The notes under the pieces are model-generated. The model ran no database searches. It was not told where the DNA came from and worked only from the letters and a program-made list of their open reading frames with translations. A DNA stretch of 64,000 bases from a virus (lineage: Duplodnaviria; Caudoviricetes). This document shows positions 10,168 to 56,964 of this stretch, piece by piece (the first letter of the stretch is position 1; every line of letters starts with the position of its first letter). The DNA lies in the IMG/VR virus record IMGVR_UViG_3300047160_004777, positions 15,007 to 79,006 of that record, one strand, 5' to 3'. Position numbers and translations under genes: made by a program.

Positions 10168-10815
10168 ATGCCGGCCACAGTACAGGCGCAATACTTCGGC
10201 GCCAGTGCGACGCTGCCCGCCGGGGCCAACGCCGAAGGTGGCGCGACGTTCAACCGCGAGGACACGCTGACCGGCACGACACCCGTACCGATCCCTGTTG
10301 CGGCGGGCGTGAACTTTTCGTGGATCAAGCAATTTCAACTTGCGATCACCGCGACGAGCACGACCACGATGAGCAATCGCACTGTGCGTATCTCGGCCGG
10401 GTTCGCGACCGGGTTGGGAATGCATTGGAAAGCTGTCGCTCAAGCGAGCTACATAAATCAGACCTCGGCCTCCGGAGCACCGGCAGACACCACGGGTACG
10501 AATAACGCCGCCACCGCGCCCTCGACGTACACGGCGTTCACAACCTCTGCCGTGCAATACGACAACACGAGTCAGGCGACTTCGAGCACGGGCATTGGTA
10601 CGACGCAGCTTCTAGTGGTCTTGCTTGCCGTGGACGCCACGTACGCGGGTGGTCCGGGGTCGGCTAGCTTGGGAAACATCGTGCTGGGCTACGACGAAGC
10701 CCACCACCGCGACAAATTGGAACGGGACGCTGTAGCTTGGGGACGCGATCCGATTGGTACTTCGGCCCGGCCTGATCGGTGTTGCCGACGACGAGGACGC
10801 CGCGATAGTTGGTGA
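10168..10815 (+). CDS. virion structural protein (paralogue of 50786..51544) with a 37-aa atypical extension
   Basis: The N-terminus and the GYDEA end align with the 50786 gene, which ends AYDEF-stop; the sequence after YDEA is Arg/Cys-rich and out of composition. Confidence 0.65.
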   Translation: MPATVQAQYFGASATLPAGANAEGGATFNREDTLTGTTPVPIPVAAGVNFSWIKQFQLAITATSTTTMSNRTVRISAGFATGLGMHWKAVAQASYINQTSASGAPADTTGTNNAATAPSTYTAFTTSAVQYDNTSQATSSTGIGTTQLLVVLLAVDATYAGGPGSASLGNIVLGYDEAHHRDKLERDAVAWGRDPIGTSARPDRCCRRRGRRDSW

Positions 10816-10816
10816 T
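10702..10816 (+). other. structured intervening element A between the last GCC codon and TGA
   Basis: Homologous to 17262..17343 and 18441..18457; the ends pair (CACCA..CGCG / CGCG..TGGTG); removal gives GAA GCC TGA. Confidence 0.55.
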
Positions 10817-13412: not shown

Positions 13413-15494
13413 ATGATCGACACCGGCGACGACGACGTGTCCGTCGAAGCTATGGACGAAAGCGAGGATCGCCCCGTACCGCGTCCAGAGCAGCAACTGA
13501 TGTTGGCGCGGATGCAGTTGCTGGAAGGCACCAGAGCCCGTCGTCAACCCAAGGGACCGGACGAACTACCGGAAGAACTCCTCAACCAGATTCAAAATCC
13601 GGCTGTCCTCGACAATGGCCTGCCGTACATCAATACGGCGTGGGCTTCGACCAATCTTATCGACAGCTACCACACGCGCATGCGTGATTCGTCGTTGCGT
13701 AACTACGCCGACGACGCGACCAAGGGAATCTCGCTTCAGAACTCACATCGCGAGAATGAATTGCCCTTCGGCCGCACGTTTCTCGGTCGGTACAAGCCTG
13801 GCCGTGGCTCAAACCCAGCCAGGGCAGAGATGGACTTTTACATCCCGCCCAACTTGAACGTGAACGGCGTGAACTCGAACGACGTGATCCGCGCCATCGA
13901 CTACGGTACGGCGCGCGACGTAAGCATTGGGTTCTACGGTGGCGACTTGCGCTGCTCCATCGACGGCAAGCTGATGATGGGCGACTTGCTCAGCTTGCTC
14001 CTGTTCGGCGGTGATGACGATTCGGCCGACGTACGCGACCCGAACGCACCTTGTAACCACCTTCCCGGTTTGGAATATGGGGTGCGTGACCGGGAAGGGA
14101 AGCTGACAGGTGATCGCGCGGTCGCCATTGGGGAGGTTGATGGAGCGCACTGTGCTGAGTTGAGCATCGTGTTCGACGGGGCGACACCGATGGCGCAAAT
14201 CAGTGGTCGAGCGGTGCCGGTTCTGGCGAAAGCTCAGCGCATGTTGGAGATGGACGCCTTGTCGCCGACCACGGCGATGGCGTTGGAGAGGCGCTATAGG
14301 GGCGTGCGATTCCCGACACTTACGAATCGCAAGTTTTCGGTGTCGCACGCGAAGGTGCGCGATTCGGCGGGCAGTCCCCCTCCCAGTGAGCCAGCCGCCG
14401 AATCCGTGCCGGAGCCTGCGACGGAGGGACGACCGATGGTTGAGGAACGCGCGGAATGGAGCACGGCCTATAAGAACGATCTGCCGGACAGCGCGTTCGC
14501 CTACGTGGAGCCCGGCGGCAAGAAAGACGAGGACGGCAAGACGACACCGCGCAGTCTGCGTCACTACCCGCATCACGACAAGGATGGTTCGGTAGACGAG
14601 CCGCACTTGAAGAATGCGTTAGCTCGCGCGGCTCAAAATCCAGATAGTGGCAAGAAAGCCATGCCGCATTTGGAACGGCACGCCAAAGCAATGGGCATAG
14701 GAGATCGCGCAGTGAGCAATGGAGATCGCGCAGTAGTCGTAGACAGCGACGATGTTGACTTTCGAGATATGACCGATATGCCGGCCCATTTCAACAACGC
14801 TACGGGCGGCACGGCGAAAGCCAGCGGTGACTTCGGCACCGCTACAGGCAAGGGGGTGGGACCCGGCGCGGAGCCAGAAACGATCACCTTGGACCCGGAT
14901 CAGGTCAAGGCCGATGATCCGGACGACTATATCCCGAGGTCCAAGAGAGCGCCGAAGGCTCCCACCGACGAGAACCCCGATCCCGATGGCGATGGTGACG
15001 ACGACCGAACCCCGCAAGGTGACACGGACCACTCGCACTGGACACCAGATGGCAAACCCAAGTTTCAAAGGAGTCGAGTAGCTACCGTGGCCGATGATGC
15101 GCTTTCCGGGGTTCGTTCCGCTCTCGTGGCGGCTGGTCTAGCGCCCGAGGGCTTTGTGGGTGACGTATCGGTTCGCTTCGCGGAGATCAGCAAGGAAATG
15201 TCGGCGCTGCGCCGCTGGGCGGATGTTGGGCGAGAAGCGCGCGACAAGCTGGTCGAGGACTGCAAGAAGGCCGGCGTGCGAGCGTTCGGGACGAGTGGGT
15301 TTTCGGAGAAGGCGTATGGGCCAGTCCTGGCTCGCGGGAGCTACGAGGAACTCCAGGACTTGTTTGCGCACTTCGAGGAACAGGGCCACAAGCGGTTTAG
15401 TGGTGGGCGAGCGACGACCGATGCCGAGCCCGAGAAGGTGCCTGCCGAGACCAGCGCGAAGCGCCGCGTACCAGTCCAGGCTTACCGAGCCTGA
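13413..15494 (+). CDS. prohead protease / scaffolding fusion protein
   Basis: N-terminal protease-like region (DVSIGFYGG..ELSIVFDGATP), internal WSTAY.NDLPDSAFA..LRHYPHH..NALAR module, acidic linker, helical scaffold-like C-terminus; two genes upstream of the MCP. Confidence 0.7.
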   Translation: MIDTGDDDVSVEAMDESEDRPVPRPEQQLMLARMQLLEGTRARRQPKGPDELPEELLNQIQNPAVLDNGLPYINTAWASTNLIDSYHTRMRDSSLRNYADDATKGISLQNSHRENELPFGRTFLGRYKPGRGSNPARAEMDFYIPPNLNVNGVNSNDVIRAIDYGTARDVSIGFYGGDLRCSIDGKLMMGDLLSLLLFGGDDDSADVRDPNAPCNHLPGLEYGVRDREGKLTGDRAVAIGEVDGAHCAELSIVFDGATPMAQISGRAVPVLAKAQRMLEMDALSPTTAMALERRYRGVRFPTLTNRKFSVSHAKVRDSAGSPPPSEPAAESVPEPATEGRPMVEERAEWSTAYKNDLPDSAFAYVEPGGKKDEDGKTTPRSLRHYPHHDKDGSVDEPHLKNALARAAQNPDSGKKAMPHLERHAKAMGIGDRAVSNGDRAVVVDSDDVDFRDMTDMPAHFNNATGGTAKASGDFGTATGKGVGPGAEPETITLDPDQVKADDPDDYIPRSKRAPKAPTDENPDPDGDGDDDRTPQGDTDHSHWTPDGKPKFQRSRVATVADDALSGVRSALVAAGLAPEGFVGDVSVRFAEISKEMSALRRWADVGREARDKLVEDCKKAGVRAFGTSGFSEKAYGPVLARGSYEELQDLFAHFEEQGHKRFSGGRATTDAEPEKVPAETSAKRRVPVQAYRA

Positions 15495-15974: not shown

Positions 15975-17420
15975 ATGGCTATGGTTCTCTCGCCGGCGCT
16001 GCCGGAAATCCGCCGCCAGTCCCCGGAGGACACGATTCGGGCGCTGGGCACGAACGGGGCGAACTTGTATCGGATCGCCTACGACCACGGCATGAACGTG
16101 TCCCAATTCCTCGAAAATCAAGACCCGACCGCAGAGCGCGAGACAGAGGATCGCTCGCTGGATGCGTACGAGCGGCTCGTCCAGGCGACAGGGCTCGTGA
16201 TGACGCCGATCCCCGAGATTGGCCTTCGCGCCTCGACCTGGGAGGAATGTCTCGCGACTCCCGAGCGCCGAGCGCTGATGCCTGAGTTTATGTCGCGCGT
16301 CTGGCGTCGAGCGCACACGGTGGGCGGCCCGCCACTTCAGTCCGACGTGTGGAACGGTCAGATTCAGACCCGTGCCGTGCTGATGTCTGGAGACGTGGCG
16401 CCTGGTGCATTGGCTAACCCGTGGTACGACAATCCGGAAATTCGTGCGAAGCGGTTGGTTCCGCCGATTCCGCTCGAAAGGATCGTGGCCCGAACCACCG
16501 CTATCGACACGGACGCCTACCGTACGTTGTACGTAACGGACGACTACGGCAACGACTCGTACCGCATGAAGCGCATCGCTGAGGGTGCCGAGATTCCCTC
16601 GACGTACCTCATCACCGGCGAGCACACCTTGCGGCTCTACAAGTTTGGCCGGGCACTCCGGGCAACCTACGAGCAGTTGCGGCGCCAGCGGGTTGACCGC
16701 ATCGCCTTCGTCATCGCGCGTATGGCGATTCAGACCGAAATCGACAAGGTGAGCATCGGCATGAACACGCTCATCAACGGTGACGGTAACGCCAATACTG
16801 CGGCGGTGGTCCAGAACAACACCGCGCTCGACTCGGCAGCGGTCGCTGGTACCTTGACGCTGAAGGCATTCTTGGCCTTCCGCCTCAACTTCTCGCTGAC
16901 CTACCTGCCGGACATCATCCTGGCACAGCAGCCAGCGATGATGCAGCTCCTGGTCTTGCCGGTGGCTCAGGGTGTTCAGGTGCCGTTCGCGTTGCTGCCA
17001 GGTAACGCCTTCGGGACAATCCAGCCGATCTACAACCAGTTGAACTACGCGATTGAGTACGGCATTACCGCCGACGCTCCCGCGCTCAAGCTGGTCGCCT
17101 TCCAGTCCAACATCGCGTTGGAGCGCGTAACCGAAGTCGGCGGGAATGTTTCGGAGGTGGATCGCTTCATAAATAACCAGACTCAGCTTCTTACTATCAC
17201 TGAGGTTGAGGGGTACGGCGTGATCGACCCTAACGCGACACGCATACTCAACGTGAATGCCACGGCGTCATCGTCCCAAATGCAGAGAGATGCTGTCGTT
17301 ATGGCGAGTGATCCCGTGGGAACGTCTGAGAAGCGGGGTCGCCATTGCTTGAAGCGCGAAGCTAACGGCAAGAGTAGGTCGCGGCGCGGCGCGGACCACT
17401 CGAACGGGATCGACTTCTAG
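15975..17420 (+). CDS. major capsid protein (HK97 fold); likely true end at 17261 (ILNVNA)
   Basis: GGAGG SD; RMKRIAEGAEIP..LRLYKFGRALRATYEQLRR, QTEIDKV, ITEVEGYGVIDPNATRIL; the last 52 aa are atypical and derive from element B. Confidence 0.85.
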   Translation: MAMVLSPALPEIRRQSPEDTIRALGTNGANLYRIAYDHGMNVSQFLENQDPTAERETEDRSLDAYERLVQATGLVMTPIPEIGLRASTWEECLATPERRALMPEFMSRVWRRAHTVGGPPLQSDVWNGQIQTRAVLMSGDVAPGALANPWYDNPEIRAKRLVPPIPLERIVARTTAIDTDAYRTLYVTDDYGNDSYRMKRIAEGAEIPSTYLITGEHTLRLYKFGRALRATYEQLRRQRVDRIAFVIARMAIQTEIDKVSIGMNTLINGDGNANTAAVVQNNTALDSAAVAGTLTLKAFLAFRLNFSLTYLPDIILAQQPAMMQLLVLPVAQGVQVPFALLPGNAFGTIQPIYNQLNYAIEYGITADAPALKLVAFQSNIALERVTEVGGNVSEVDRFINNQTQLLTITEVEGYGVIDPNATRILNVNATASSSQMQRDAVVMASDPVGTSEKRGRHCLKREANGKSRSRRGADHSNGIDF

Positions 17421-18457
17421 TCCAGAGGGCGCCAGCTTTGTCCGAGAACCAGCCGGCCGATGGTCGTTCGACTGACTCCGTATCGCGCACCGAGTTCATC
17501 TTGCGTCCACTCGCCGGTTGCGTACAGTTCGGAAATGAGCCGGCGTACCTCGGGATCGTCCAGCGAACCGCTTCCCAAGGGGCCGGTATGACCACGGCGA
17601 CCCTTGCGAATCATGTCGTGCATGTTGTCGAGAGCCGTTCCCTCGCGCAGATGGTCGGGTTCCTGGCATATGGGTCTGTCGCAGTTATGGAGCGCGTGGG
17701 GAGCAAGCTCGCTCAGGGGTTTGCCGAGCTTCAGCGACAGGCCGAATCGGTGGGCGGTCGTCATCACTGTTCCGGTCCAAAACAGGCCGTAACCGGCCTC
17801 GTTCGTGGCGCCGAGCCAATCTCTTCCGCGACAGGCAGAAACCTTCTCGTTGTTGACCAAAGCCCAGTAGCGTTGCGTCGGTGTCGGGCGCATTTTCGGC
17901 GGTCGTTGCACAAGCAATCGGCAGCGCGGCTTCCCGCAAGATTTCTGCTCCTTACCGCCGGCGCGACGAGGGATATAGACCTCTTCGCAAATGGGACAGA
18001 CGCGCGGTTCCTCGCGCAGCAGGCCGCGTTTCCGTTTCGCGGCTTTGAGCAAGGCGCTAGGCGTAGAACCGGCCCCGCGACTTGCCCAACTCGCTTTCAG
18101 GACTTCGCTGCGCGGCCCGCAAACGCAATGCGCCAGCGCAACACACAGCGTAACGTTACACACGAGAGCTACTATGTAATCGTCCGGGACGAGTCCATAG
18201 GCGAGTTCCCACCGCACACGTACAACACGCGGTTGTTTGGGACGGGCATCCTCGCCGCAAAAGATTACGGGGGAACCTTCTTTGTTCAGCGATCCTGTCC
18301 AAAGCTCGTGACCCGAGTGGCCAGGCGAGATCAGTGTCGCTATCCGTTCCGACAGGACCGTATTATTGAGAAGCATCGCGGGATGTCCTCCGTGGTGTCG
18401 CGCTCCCGGCTGTTGACTCAGTGCGGGAGCATTCCGTTTTCCGCGATTGTATCGTTC
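17262..18457 (+). mobile_element. structured intervening element B carrying an antisense HNH endonuclease
   Basis: Begins right after AAT GCC and ends 5' of the TAA at 18458; the 5' end ACGGCGTCATCG pairs with the 3' end CGATTGTATCGT; shares its ends with element A. Confidence 0.55.
17417..18376 (-). CDS. HNH homing endonuclease (two HNH-like units, Zn finger, C-terminal HTH)
   Basis: GGAGG SD; WLGATNEAGYG..AHR..ALHNCDRPICQEPDHLREGTALDNMHDM; CPIC..CGKPRC; TQDELGARYGVSRTTI. Confidence 0.85.
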   Translation of the reverse strand: MLLNNTVLSERIATLISPGHSGHELWTGSLNKEGSPVIFCGEDARPKQPRVVRVRWELAYGLVPDDYIVALVCNVTLCVALAHCVCGPRSEVLKASWASRGAGSTPSALLKAAKRKRGLLREEPRVCPICEEVYIPRRAGGKEQKSCGKPRCRLLVQRPPKMRPTPTQRYWALVNNEKVSACRGRDWLGATNEAGYGLFWTGTVMTTAHRFGLSLKLGKPLSELAPHALHNCDRPICQEPDHLREGTALDNMHDMIRKGRRGHTGPLGSGSLDDPEVRRLISELYATGEWTQDELGARYGVSRTTIGRLVLGQSWRPLD

Positions 18458-18475
18458 TAACTAGGAGGTACCCGA

Positions 18476-18817
18476 ATGACGGATACACCGAGCCCGACGA
18501 CCAGTCCCGCCACCGAACCGGCCGCACCGACCGGCGACGCGCCGGCGCCAGACGGGTCGCGTACGCAGGGCGAAGGTCCCGACGTATACGACGGGTCCGA
18601 GATCGAAAAGATGTGGGTTCAACCCGCAGCGCAACACAAGGCGAGCGGCATGGTTGTTCTGTTCGAGCGCCACCCGGCCCACCCGGACGGCGAGGCGTTT
18701 ATTGGCGGCGACGGACCGGCGGTCGAGGTTGCCAAGACACCGGCCGTGATGGCGAAGCTCGACGCCGGCGACCTCGAAGAAGCCGAAGCGCCCGCACCAC
18801 CCGCTCCACCGAGCTAG
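18476..18817 (+). CDS. head-associated hypothetical protein
   Basis: GGAGG SD; shares the domain VVLFERHPAHPDGEAF with the next gene. Confidence 0.65.
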   Translation: MTDTPSPTTSPATEPAAPTGDAPAPDGSRTQGEGPDVYDGSEIEKMWVQPAAQHKASGMVVLFERHPAHPDGEAFIGGDGPAVEVAKTPAVMAKLDAGDLEEAEAPAPPAPPS

Positions 18818-50785: not shown

Positions 50786-51544
50786 ATGCCGCAGGCGACC
50801 ATTCGAGCAAGTTGGTACGGGAACTCGACTACTGAACCCGCCGGGGTCACTGCCGAAACAGGAGTCAATCTGGATCGTTCGGCAGCACAGGCGGGTGGCG
50901 AGCCAGTGCCGTTGCCGGGAGCCGCGCCGAGTACGGTGTACAGCGCCATGAAAGAAGTCGCGCTCGAAGTCACCTCGCCACCCTCGCCCGCCACGACGAT
51001 CTCAAACGGTACGGTTCGCGCTACGGGCGCGATGCCGAACGGCGCCGCGTGGATGTATCAAGCCTCGACCAGCTACCTCTCGCAGCTATCGTCCGTGACT
51101 ACGCTCGCGGTTGGCGCGGCGGCGGGCGATGGAACAATTCAGACGGCCGGCGGCTTCGCGGTGAACAACCACATTCAGATCGACCAGGGCTCGGCGTCTG
51201 AGCTACGTATCGTGGTCGCGGTTGCGGGCACAGGCCCGTACGCGTTGACGCTCGACCGCATCTGCGGCAATAACCACGGTAGTGGCGTGCAGGTAGGACT
51301 CTTCACGAGCGCCGGCCCGGCAGATGTCGCTGCCGAGGCGGGCAGTAATCAACCTGCTGTCGCCACAGGTTACGCACTGCCGACGACGAGCCCCGTGGTC
51401 TATGACACACTCGGTGTAACCACGGGTACGACTGGACGCAAGGGCTCGTTCGTGCGGCTCGTGGGGGCCTTGTCGAGTGCGTTCGGCACGGCGCCCGGTA
51501 CGGTGACCTTGCCCTCGCTGATTATTGCCTACGATGAGTTCTGA
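50786..51544 (+). CDS. virion structural protein (paralogue of 10168)
   Basis: AAGGAG SD; aligns with the 10168 gene, with an extra internal module. Confidence 0.65.
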   Translation: MPQATIRASWYGNSTTEPAGVTAETGVNLDRSAAQAGGEPVPLPGAAPSTVYSAMKEVALEVTSPPSPATTISNGTVRATGAMPNGAAWMYQASTSYLSQLSSVTTLAVGAAAGDGTIQTAGGFAVNNHIQIDQGSASELRIVVAVAGTGPYALTLDRICGNNHGSGVQVGLFTSAGPADVAAEAGSNQPAVATGYALPTTSPVVYDTLGVTTGTTGRKGSFVRLVGALSSAFGTAPGTVTLPSLIIAYDEF

Positions 51545-55890: not shown

Positions 55891-56964
55891 ATGGGTATTT
55901 TCTTCAAACAGTCGGCGCTTTTTACGCGCTACGCGGTCACGCTCCAGTTCCGGGACAAAGTAATGGGGGGCATCCCCAAAGACCCGAAACTGATCGAGGG
56001 TTGGTTGCGGGCAAAAGCCGGTATCTCGGACGTTGAAGAGGTCCGGGTGGCGCTGCTCCGTACGCTCGGGGAGTTGGGTGCCGAAGTCAACCCGGACATG
56101 AACTATGCTGAGATCGAGCAGGCCGCCGAGAAAGTGGCCGGCACGAAAGAGACCAGCGGCTTCAAACGCGACCCCCGCTACGGGCTGTACCTGGAGTCGA
56201 GGCAGCTCAAGGCGGCGCTTGTTGGGCCAATCGCGGCGTAAATCCGTGATTGCCGTACGGACGCCTCTATCCGTATGGGCTGCAAATAAGTCTTGCCTAA
56301 ACGGCGAACGCTAAACGACATGCCTTTGGCGCCGCACGCCAACGCCGTGCTAAGTGGTCTCTCTGAGGTCAGCGATGCGTAGAGCACATACAGCAAGCCG
56401 CCCGACCGGCTTTATAAGCCGAGGGCGAAGACATGTGCCGAACCCGGACGAAAGTCCGGCGTGGCTGGCAACGGCCACGACCCCGCGAGGGGTTACATCT
56501 GCAAAGAGTCAACAAATATTTTGTATGCTGGGGAACGTGTGGGTCCGACGAAGAAAGGTGCGCGGTCGTACCTCGCGGAGCGCGTCTTTCCCACCCCGGA
56601 TACGTTCTGGCTCGACCGCCAGGACCCGGACGGCATTGAGATGGTTGTCGGCCACGTCACCGGCCCCTCCGGCCCCCGCTCCACGCTCGGGTACCACGAG
56701 TACGTTCGCGGCGCGACAGTTCAGGGCCACATTCTCGTAGCTAGGGACGCCATCCCGCACGAGTGGTGGCCCGACCTCTGGACATTGATGGAGGAAAACG
56801 GCATCGGGGCCTTGCGGTCTCAGGGCTACGGGAAGTTCGACGTTCTCGCGTGGGAACAGATCGACTTGCTGACGCCAGTTCCCGACCCGGACGCGATCCT
56901 CAACTCGACCACGAAGTTGTCGCCCTCGATCACGAAAGCTCTCAGGGGCGCGGCGAAGGCGTAG
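55891..56964 (+). CDS. Cas7/RAMP-like protein (263 aa after splicing; exons 55891-56219 and 56502-56964)
   Basis: RAMP-like YAVTLQF..VMGGIP, spliced core YLESRQLKAAL-KESTN, Gly-rich loop GIGALRSQGYGKFDV. Confidence 0.75.
56220..56501 (+). ncRNA. group I intron (282 nt, no ORF)
   Basis: 5' exon ends in U and the intron ends in G; P3 CTTGC/GCAAG, P4 CGGCG/CGCCG, P7 GCACAT/ATGTGC, P8 hairpin, P9 CCGGAC-GAAA-GTCCGG; splicing restores the frame (CT+C = Leu). Confidence 0.9.

Follow-up and report, generated by a model that had tools for sequence, protein, structure and literature searches.

The window analysed here, a stretch of 64,000 nt of the Caudoviricetes record IMGVR_UViG_3300047160_004777 (positions 15,007 to 79,006), comes from a single metagenome contig of a soil phage; the record is 63% complete and the genome comprises about 79 kb. 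At the end of the major capsid protein (MCP) gene it contains an insertion of 1196 nt (17262-18457), hereafter element B, in which a gene for an HNH homing endonuclease is encoded on the opposite strand. We put the probability at roughly 55% that element B represents a free-standing HNH cassette in antisense orientation, located at a hot spot common to the family, and that this cassette in the present genome lies upstream of the MCP stop codon, keeps forward frames free of stops and leaves the MCP with a tail. The capsid protein most likely bears 52 extra residues as a junk tail. It had originally been predicted that the insertion represents a new class of intervening sequence which is spliced, protein-spliced or bypassed. 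This claim was not supported, since no core and no conserved fold were found, splice rules fail and the endonuclease cassette is free-standing elsewhere. The second option of the original prediction, a capsid that tolerates an extension of 52 aa, fits better, and its context is given by stop-free forward frames that cover the whole insert.

The MCP is encoded by an open reading frame (ORF) of 481 aa (15975-17420, + strand) of the Phage_capsid_4 family. As had been predicted, the conserved part ends in ..ILNVNA (last codon GCC, 17259-17261) and is followed by 52 atypical residues. The native end was established by comparison with 62 relatives, namely 18 protein-database homologues (57-77% identity) and 44 MCPs from viral contigs (down to ~27%). 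In the alignment, 18/18 database homologues terminate at ..ILN[IV][NA][AG], corresponding to residue 429 of the window MCP, and the 44 viral-contig relatives likewise all stop after this residue, so that the native coding sequence comprises 429 codons (15975-17261). The continuation was found in the window genome alone (0/62 relatives). This tail (17262-17420) ends in TAG at 17418-17420, which overlaps the stop codon of the HNH gene as the tetranucleotide CTAG. Assignment to the HK97 fold is based on the Pfam family and an AlphaFold2 (AF2) model from 78 sequences with a mean confidence (pLDDT) of 79, for which Foldseek matched HK97-type capsids; a first model from 19 sequences (pLDDT 42) was unusable, and a sequence-profile search of solved structures returned no match. 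In the model from 78 sequences, residues 403-426 form confident strands, and the tail, with pLDDT values of 41-58, is probably disordered; whether the C-terminus points inward or outward is not revealed by this model.

At the other end, element B is followed by TAA (18458-18460), the Shine-Dalgarno sequence (SD) of the next gene and its ATG at 18476. The two nucleotides TC before TAA also read as claimed, and the arithmetic by which excision of 17262-18457 creates a GCC-TAA junction is right, with a boundary that can slide by 1 nt at most. The TAA lies 15 nt before the next ATG and directly 5' of its SD; it is the stop codon of a forward ORF described below, and it may also be the old MCP stop. 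The next gene of the structural operon (18476-18817, + strand), which was traced in the relatives by tblastn, directly follows the MCP gene in most of them.

The antisense gene inside element B (17417-18376, - strand) is an HNH gene, as the original prediction had stated, and codes for a homing endonuclease of 319 aa. Its identity is given by Pfam (HNH_3, E 5e-6, plus a helix-turn-helix) and by endonuclease families of PHROG (best 2e-20), and a homologue, P0122, is 43% identical. The protein consists of a degenerate HNH-like unit (residues 8-91), an intact HNH unit (residues 163-268) and a C-terminal helix-turn-helix, and the conserved His, Asn and Cys columns are retained across 7 HNH homologues. 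The extra ~108 residues at the N-terminus (18104-18355, - strand) match HNH families and have lost the first catalytic His; judged by its sequence, this region is a degenerate second HNH unit fused ahead of the intact one. The product proposed by the gene caller (P0121) begins downstream of the degenerate unit. The gene has its own SD, GGAGG (18387-18391, - strand), 10 nt before its ATG, which is conserved in one of the relatives (L009; labels of this kind denote fetched loci).

Upstream of the HNH gene, a GC-rich hairpin (18402-18430) and a T-rich run (together 18402-18442, + strand) lie within the forward ORF. This was the one solid hairpin among those that had been reported inside the insertion. 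An alignment of the window with L009 and L004 showed that it is conserved, with 2 compensatory pairs, in relatives whose MCP has retained its stop codon. The 60 nt at the right end of element B are part of the HNH cassette and not of an intron core. The hairpin failed a strict terminator scan.

HNH homologues in the relatives were retrieved by tblastn with the HNH protein. An antisense HNH gene of the same family (24-43% identical) was found directly downstream of the MCP gene in five other lineages (L009, L004/5/6, L033, L037 and L041), which agrees with the predicted mobile HNH element at the capsid gene end. In these five lineages the MCP stop is intact and the HNH stop lies 17-56 nt past it, and a GC-rich hairpin with a T-rich run separates the HNH start from the next gene in most of the HNH-bearing lineages. 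The distribution is patchy: HNH genes occupy the junction in 6 lineages, and in ~25 relatives the MCP is followed directly by the next gene or by other cargo. As expected from the original prediction, HNH-less relatives show a cassette-free arrangement of GCC, stop codon and SD, and none of them has the tail of 52 aa. Since the MCP stop is intact before the HNH gene in five lineages and the gene is absent from most relatives, we regard it, on these sequence comparisons, as a free-standing homing endonuclease gene that is sporadically present among relatives and whose insertion site is a hot spot of recombination. Cleavage of the cassette-free allele by the endonuclease, and copying of the cassette into it, is its predicted homing behaviour. 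In the closest HNH-less relatives an unrelated forward gene of 124 aa (L002:5337-5711) was observed at the same junction, so the site accepts varied cargo. A blastn search of a phage collection with the region from the MCP to the next gene gave no match.

The forward strand of element B is open throughout. Downstream of the tail stop, an SD-like AGAGGG (17424-17429) precedes a TTG at 17438, from which an ORF of 340 codons (17438-18460, + strand), hereafter the bridge ORF, runs codon-aligned with the antisense HNH gene to the TAA at 18458-18460. The order on this strand is thus MCP with tail, TAG, AGAGGG, TTG, 340 codons, TAA, SD and ATG of the next gene, with 17 nt between the tail stop and the bridge start; the bridge frame is without stop from 17378 onward. 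The forward frame aligned with the HNH codons was free of stops over the entire cassette in 6/6 lineages. In these, bridge start codons are located 0-55 nt past the MCP stop, and the bridges end between 14 nt inside the next gene and 47 nt before its start; in L037 the bridge end and the next-gene start overlap as TAATG.

A stop-free frame of this kind requires that the HNH gene lack the codons TTA, CTA and TCA. None was present in the six antisense HNH genes, for each of which 1.1-4.1 were expected from neighbouring genes; the joint chance of this is ~1e-6 in the five lineages with a usable codon background. HNH genes on the same strand as their neighbours served as controls and contained 3 such codons in 198 (L010, same family), 6 in 190 (L152) and 0 in 148 (L154), the latter two being more distant. 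A search for related loci with an alignment of 3 HNH members brought up only 4, all of them distant. Nearly all long genes of the window hold several of them. A seventh, more distant antisense HNH gene was observed between two minus-strand genes (L153:2692-3675, - strand); here an operon-strand ORF of 327 codons spans the HNH gene, in a frame that is not codon-aligned with it. In two loci with identical MCPs, the caller took the forward shadow ORF in one (L005:2464-3237) and the antisense HNH gene in the other (L004:5348-6043). Bridge ORFs of HNH cassettes will be mis-annotated as hypothetical proteins.

These observations suggest the following course of events. The mobile unit would comprise an HNH gene together with its SD and a hairpin upstream of it, and members of its family repeatedly settle at the border of the capsid gene and the head gene that follows it. 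In the window genome the cassette, together with a left flank of 155 nt, would have come to sit before instead of after the MCP stop. Nothing would be spliced out, and the MCP would be translated with its 52-residue tail as far as the CTAG shared with the HNH stop; 17 nt further on, the bridge ORF, if it is translated, would lead ribosomes as far as the TAA, which directly adjoins the SD of the following gene. A backwards gene may be tolerated in the operon because the forward strand stays translatable. The bridge might prevent polarity of the Rho type, or keep transcripts from being terminated at the hairpin, which lies inside the bridge ORF and would be melted by a translating ribosome. The tailed MCP would presumably assemble. 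If this is true, selfish endonuclease genes can sit backwards in the most highly expressed operon of a phage at little cost, with three avoided codons keeping the opposite strand translatable, and an essential capsid protein can absorb a junk tail of 52 residues. This would affect annotation as well as the understanding of polarity and operon design in phages.

A second insertion in the same genome has to be considered together with element B. Element A (10702-10816, + strand) comprises 115 nt without an ORF of its own and is homologous to the left part of element B. It is flanked by the last conserved codon (GCC) of a second gene (gene 10168) on one side and by a TGA on the other. Relatives of this gene (66-72% identical) end in ..LGYDE[AGR]-stop at the junction in 5/5 cases, and the window gene runs 37 codons on to the TGA at the end of element A, with a second TGA one base later. 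The homologous block (10714-10785 in A, 17277-17348 in B) has 41/72 ungapped identities, equivalent to a divergence of ~43%, and has the same phase with respect to the reading frame of its host gene. No non-self match in the 79-kb genome scores higher (z 5.9), and a search with nhmmer that took in the genome and all loci yielded two copies only, A and B. The two insertion sites have 12/25 bases in common (p ~0.01). DNA-pattern searches revealed no further copy in viral contigs (6 chance matches) or in metagenome contigs (77 chance matches, all at or below 12.8 bits), and a profile of the A and B tail peptides run against six-frame ORFs of all loci gave only pattern-selected chance matches. Under the cassette explanation, element A could be an HNH-less derivative of such a cassette that arrived at a second, similar gene end.

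Two further homologues of gene 10168 were observed. A distant one (42% identical, L026:5700-6368) has no stop after ..IYDEG and continues for 48 residues; the extended gene overlaps the start of a downstream ORF that is cut by the contig end and is without Pfam match. A paralogue in the window (50786-51544, 38% identical over 100 residues) ends natively in ..AYDEF-stop without an insert.

Several observations speak against the explanation of element B as a displaced cassette with a tolerated tail. The hairpin and T-rich run could terminate forward transcripts, and the left flank of 155 nt is without counterpart in the cassettes of the relatives. The MCP C-terminus is strictly conserved in 62/62 relatives, down to ~27% identity, a constraint that a 52-aa tail could violate. 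Elements A and B are homologous and both lie precisely before a stop codon, like ORF-less and ORF-containing copies of one intron, and they have a motif of 9/10 matching nt at an equal offset of 7 nt from the stop, which favours a discrete element with defined ends. In a free scan the similarity of the 3' part of A to B was not significant, nor was there significant similarity between the last 25 nt of B and the right flank of the L009 cassette. That two homologous inserts of one genome both precede a stop codon is a feature which the cassette explanation does not account for, the most interesting one here, and the pair offers a concrete and cheap test case for an undescribed mechanism of insertion or removal. 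Several early tail codons are one base change from a stop, and none has been fixed despite the ~43% divergence of the shared block, which is in favour of either tolerance of the tail or its removal.

Removal would be required if A and B were the ORF-less and the HNH-containing copy of a new small intervening sequence located before the stop, spliced out of the transcript, either autocatalytically or with the aid of a helper factor, so that GCC and stop codon are rejoined. We consider this unlikely. It would account for the presence of two homologous elements at the same type of site in two unrelated genes, and for a stop codon that directly follows each of them and is in frame only upon removal. 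The part of element B that has no counterpart in A (~17357-18440) has the standard cassette layout of the relatives, as if it were nested in an A-like element. Complementary terminal segments are found at the same offset in both, with 5 bp in A and 10/12 pairs in B. The latter pairing, which had been taken as a structural feature of the insertion, does exist; however, it is not more than expected by chance, and only 5-6 of the equivalent 12 terminal positions pair in A. In tests with RNAfold, the flanks of B and the whole of A folded no better than shuffled sequences (z +0.44, -1.26 and -0.63), and RNAalifold of A with a B-mini construct made of the two ends of B found no consensus fold (z 0.14 relative to shuffled columns). 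Conservation between the two elements is lacking in the first 12-15 nt as well as in the last 7 nt, no extra copies turned up in the viral and metagenome collections searched, and the TAA is equally well accounted for as the stop of the bridge ORF.

The original prediction had seen neither a group I nor a group II core, and this was confirmed. Searches of Rfam with B, A and the whole window, at gathering thresholds as well as up to E 10, gave no ribozyme or intron match, including RF00028. Elsewhere in the window, a plus-strand gene contains an insert of 282 nt (56221-56502) that is preceded by U, has G as its last base and upon removal restores ..KAALKES..; going by these sequence features, it is a probable group I intron, and Rfam gave no match for it either up to E 10. 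Rfam silence alone is thus weak evidence, a point in favour of a hidden intron in B as well, and the case against an intron is built on the boundary rules and the absence of a shared fold. For group I, element B has C instead of U at position -1 and ends in C (or T if slid by 1 nt) without a terminal G, and element A is likewise preceded by C and ends in T. No P3-P8 core was recognised; A has only 115 nt, which is smaller than any known self-splicing core, and in B only ~25 nt remain from the cassette hairpin to the 3' end. A group II intron was rejected as there is no GUGYG start and no domain V, the ends being ACGGC..GTTC in B and CACCA..GTGAT in A.

Other known mechanisms did not fit either. 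An intein was discarded because the length of 1196 nt is not divisible by 3, the host frame meets a stop after 52 codons and the HNH gene is on the opposite strand. Bypass of the T4 gene 60 type was discarded because GCC is not followed by a stop, TAA is not preceded by a GCC that could serve for landing, and the gap measures 1196 nt. Elements of the MITE or IS200/IS605 type were rejected, given that there is no target duplication and just a 5-bp terminal complement in A; neither the Y1 transposase (Y1_Tnp) nor RtcB was found in the 63%-complete record, the absence of RtcB counting against the intervening sequence. By eye, no frameshift or alternative splice site that yields a native-like MCP end suits both A and B. 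In a related proposal, the sequences shared by A and B represent a small mobile element whose homing site is the gap between final sense codon and stop codon in virion genes of high expression. It would either be excised from the mRNA through a mechanism not yet described or have evolved into a translational bridge that ribosomes read through, and one copy would carry a nested HNH cassette as its mobility engine. We hold this to be unlikely as well.

Slightly less probable still is that the A-like block is a separate translated mobile module of ~115-125 nt, which replaces stop codons and adds a related peptide (RDAV..DP.GTS) to virion proteins, the HNH cassette being merely in tandem and the peptide functional or at least selected. 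The block lies in the same frame in both genes, with 15, 16 and 10 identities of 24 by codon position, although this bias has a p of only ~0.05. In the shared frame 12/32 residues are identical versus 4-10 in other frames, and both tails are open, over 37 and 52 codons. Element A also fits the first ~125 nt of B colinearly about as well as it fits the two ends of B (scores of 8.5 vs 9.0), so that an HNH cassette nested in an A-like element and one beside such an element are both compatible with the alignments. There is a precedent in the Rickettsia palindromic elements, small repeats that are translated inside genes (review PMC10969869). However, the tail of A has a GC3 of 0.49, which is not coding-like, and such a tail is absent from the relatives examined of either gene. 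A profile of the two tails had 0 matches in 1.84 billion proteins, in a search of low power. In addition, the tandem arrangement needs the loss of a further stop codon after the module in B.

Element B opens with a direct repeat of 22 nt (17262-17283), whose source is the MCP codons at 17215-17236. It starts 47 nt downstream of its source, exactly at the first base of B, with 18/22 matching nt, a value reached in 0/5000 shuffles, and most of the differences are silent third-position changes when read in the MCP frame. From its sequence this segment looks like a fragment of the MCP gene of another phage that was imported with the cassette, and the present arrangement of B could not be derived from a normal homing event. 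It is very improbable that B is a recombination scar or a lesion specific to this record, with the MCP stop lost at cassette installation or during assembly in a defective or minor variant: the repeat would suit aberrant repair and the record is a single incomplete contig, but the before-the-stop arrangement occurs twice in the genome, the codon after GCC is in both cases at least 2 substitutions from any stop, which makes a simple sequencing error unlikely, the forward frames follow an orderly succession from the tail stop to the next gene, and the divergence between A and B indicates that the arrangement is old.

The explanation of element B as an antisense HNH cassette with read-through finds parallels in known systems. 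Free-standing homing endonuclease genes of phages include the mob and seg genes of T4 (PMC2988022, PMC2790892), and nuclease genes are found at exchange boundaries (PMC10448857). As in these, an HNH gene with its own expression signals lies between conserved genes, is patchy at one site, and homology among relatives breaks at the end of the flanking gene. In contrast to them, element B is antisense to the late operon, lies before the capsid stop and extends the host protein, its forward strand is free of stops, and it has an HNH-less homologue at a second gene end. Mobile group I introns with HNH genes are known in bacteria and phages (PMC3984707). With these, element B has in common an HNH gene within an insertion in an essential phage gene and the existence of ORF-less and ORF-containing versions. 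It differs in the missing U at -1 and terminal G, in the lack of a recognisable core, in the small size of A and in that its HNH gene is antisense and common to intron-free cassettes in relatives.

A precedent for translation through the insertion is the ShiLan-type HNH insertion in a mycobacteriophage methylase gene, which is thought to be translated within the phage gene without splicing (PMC11855218). In both cases an HNH-carrying insertion without intron or intein features lies in a phage coding frame that is presumably translated through. The ShiLan HNH gene lies in the interior of a non-essential gene, on the strand of this host but in a different frame, and the host frame can be read from one end of the insert to the other without a stop. 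In the window phage, the HNH gene is antisense and located at the very C-terminus of an essential capsid gene, and the open forward strand is divided into two ORFs (tail 17262-17420 and bridge 17438-18460) between which translation would be split.

As to the capsid itself, T7 gp10B is an HK97-fold MCP with a C-terminal extension of 53 aa that is built into capsids, and peptides of 50 aa have been displayed on all 415 copies of the T7 capsid protein (PMC3444042). The extension is of similar length to the tail described here; in T7 it arises by programmed frameshifting in a minority species, whereas in the window phage every MCP would carry the tail, from inserted DNA. If the tail is indeed tolerated, the C-terminus of this MCP family may serve as a display site in phage engineering.

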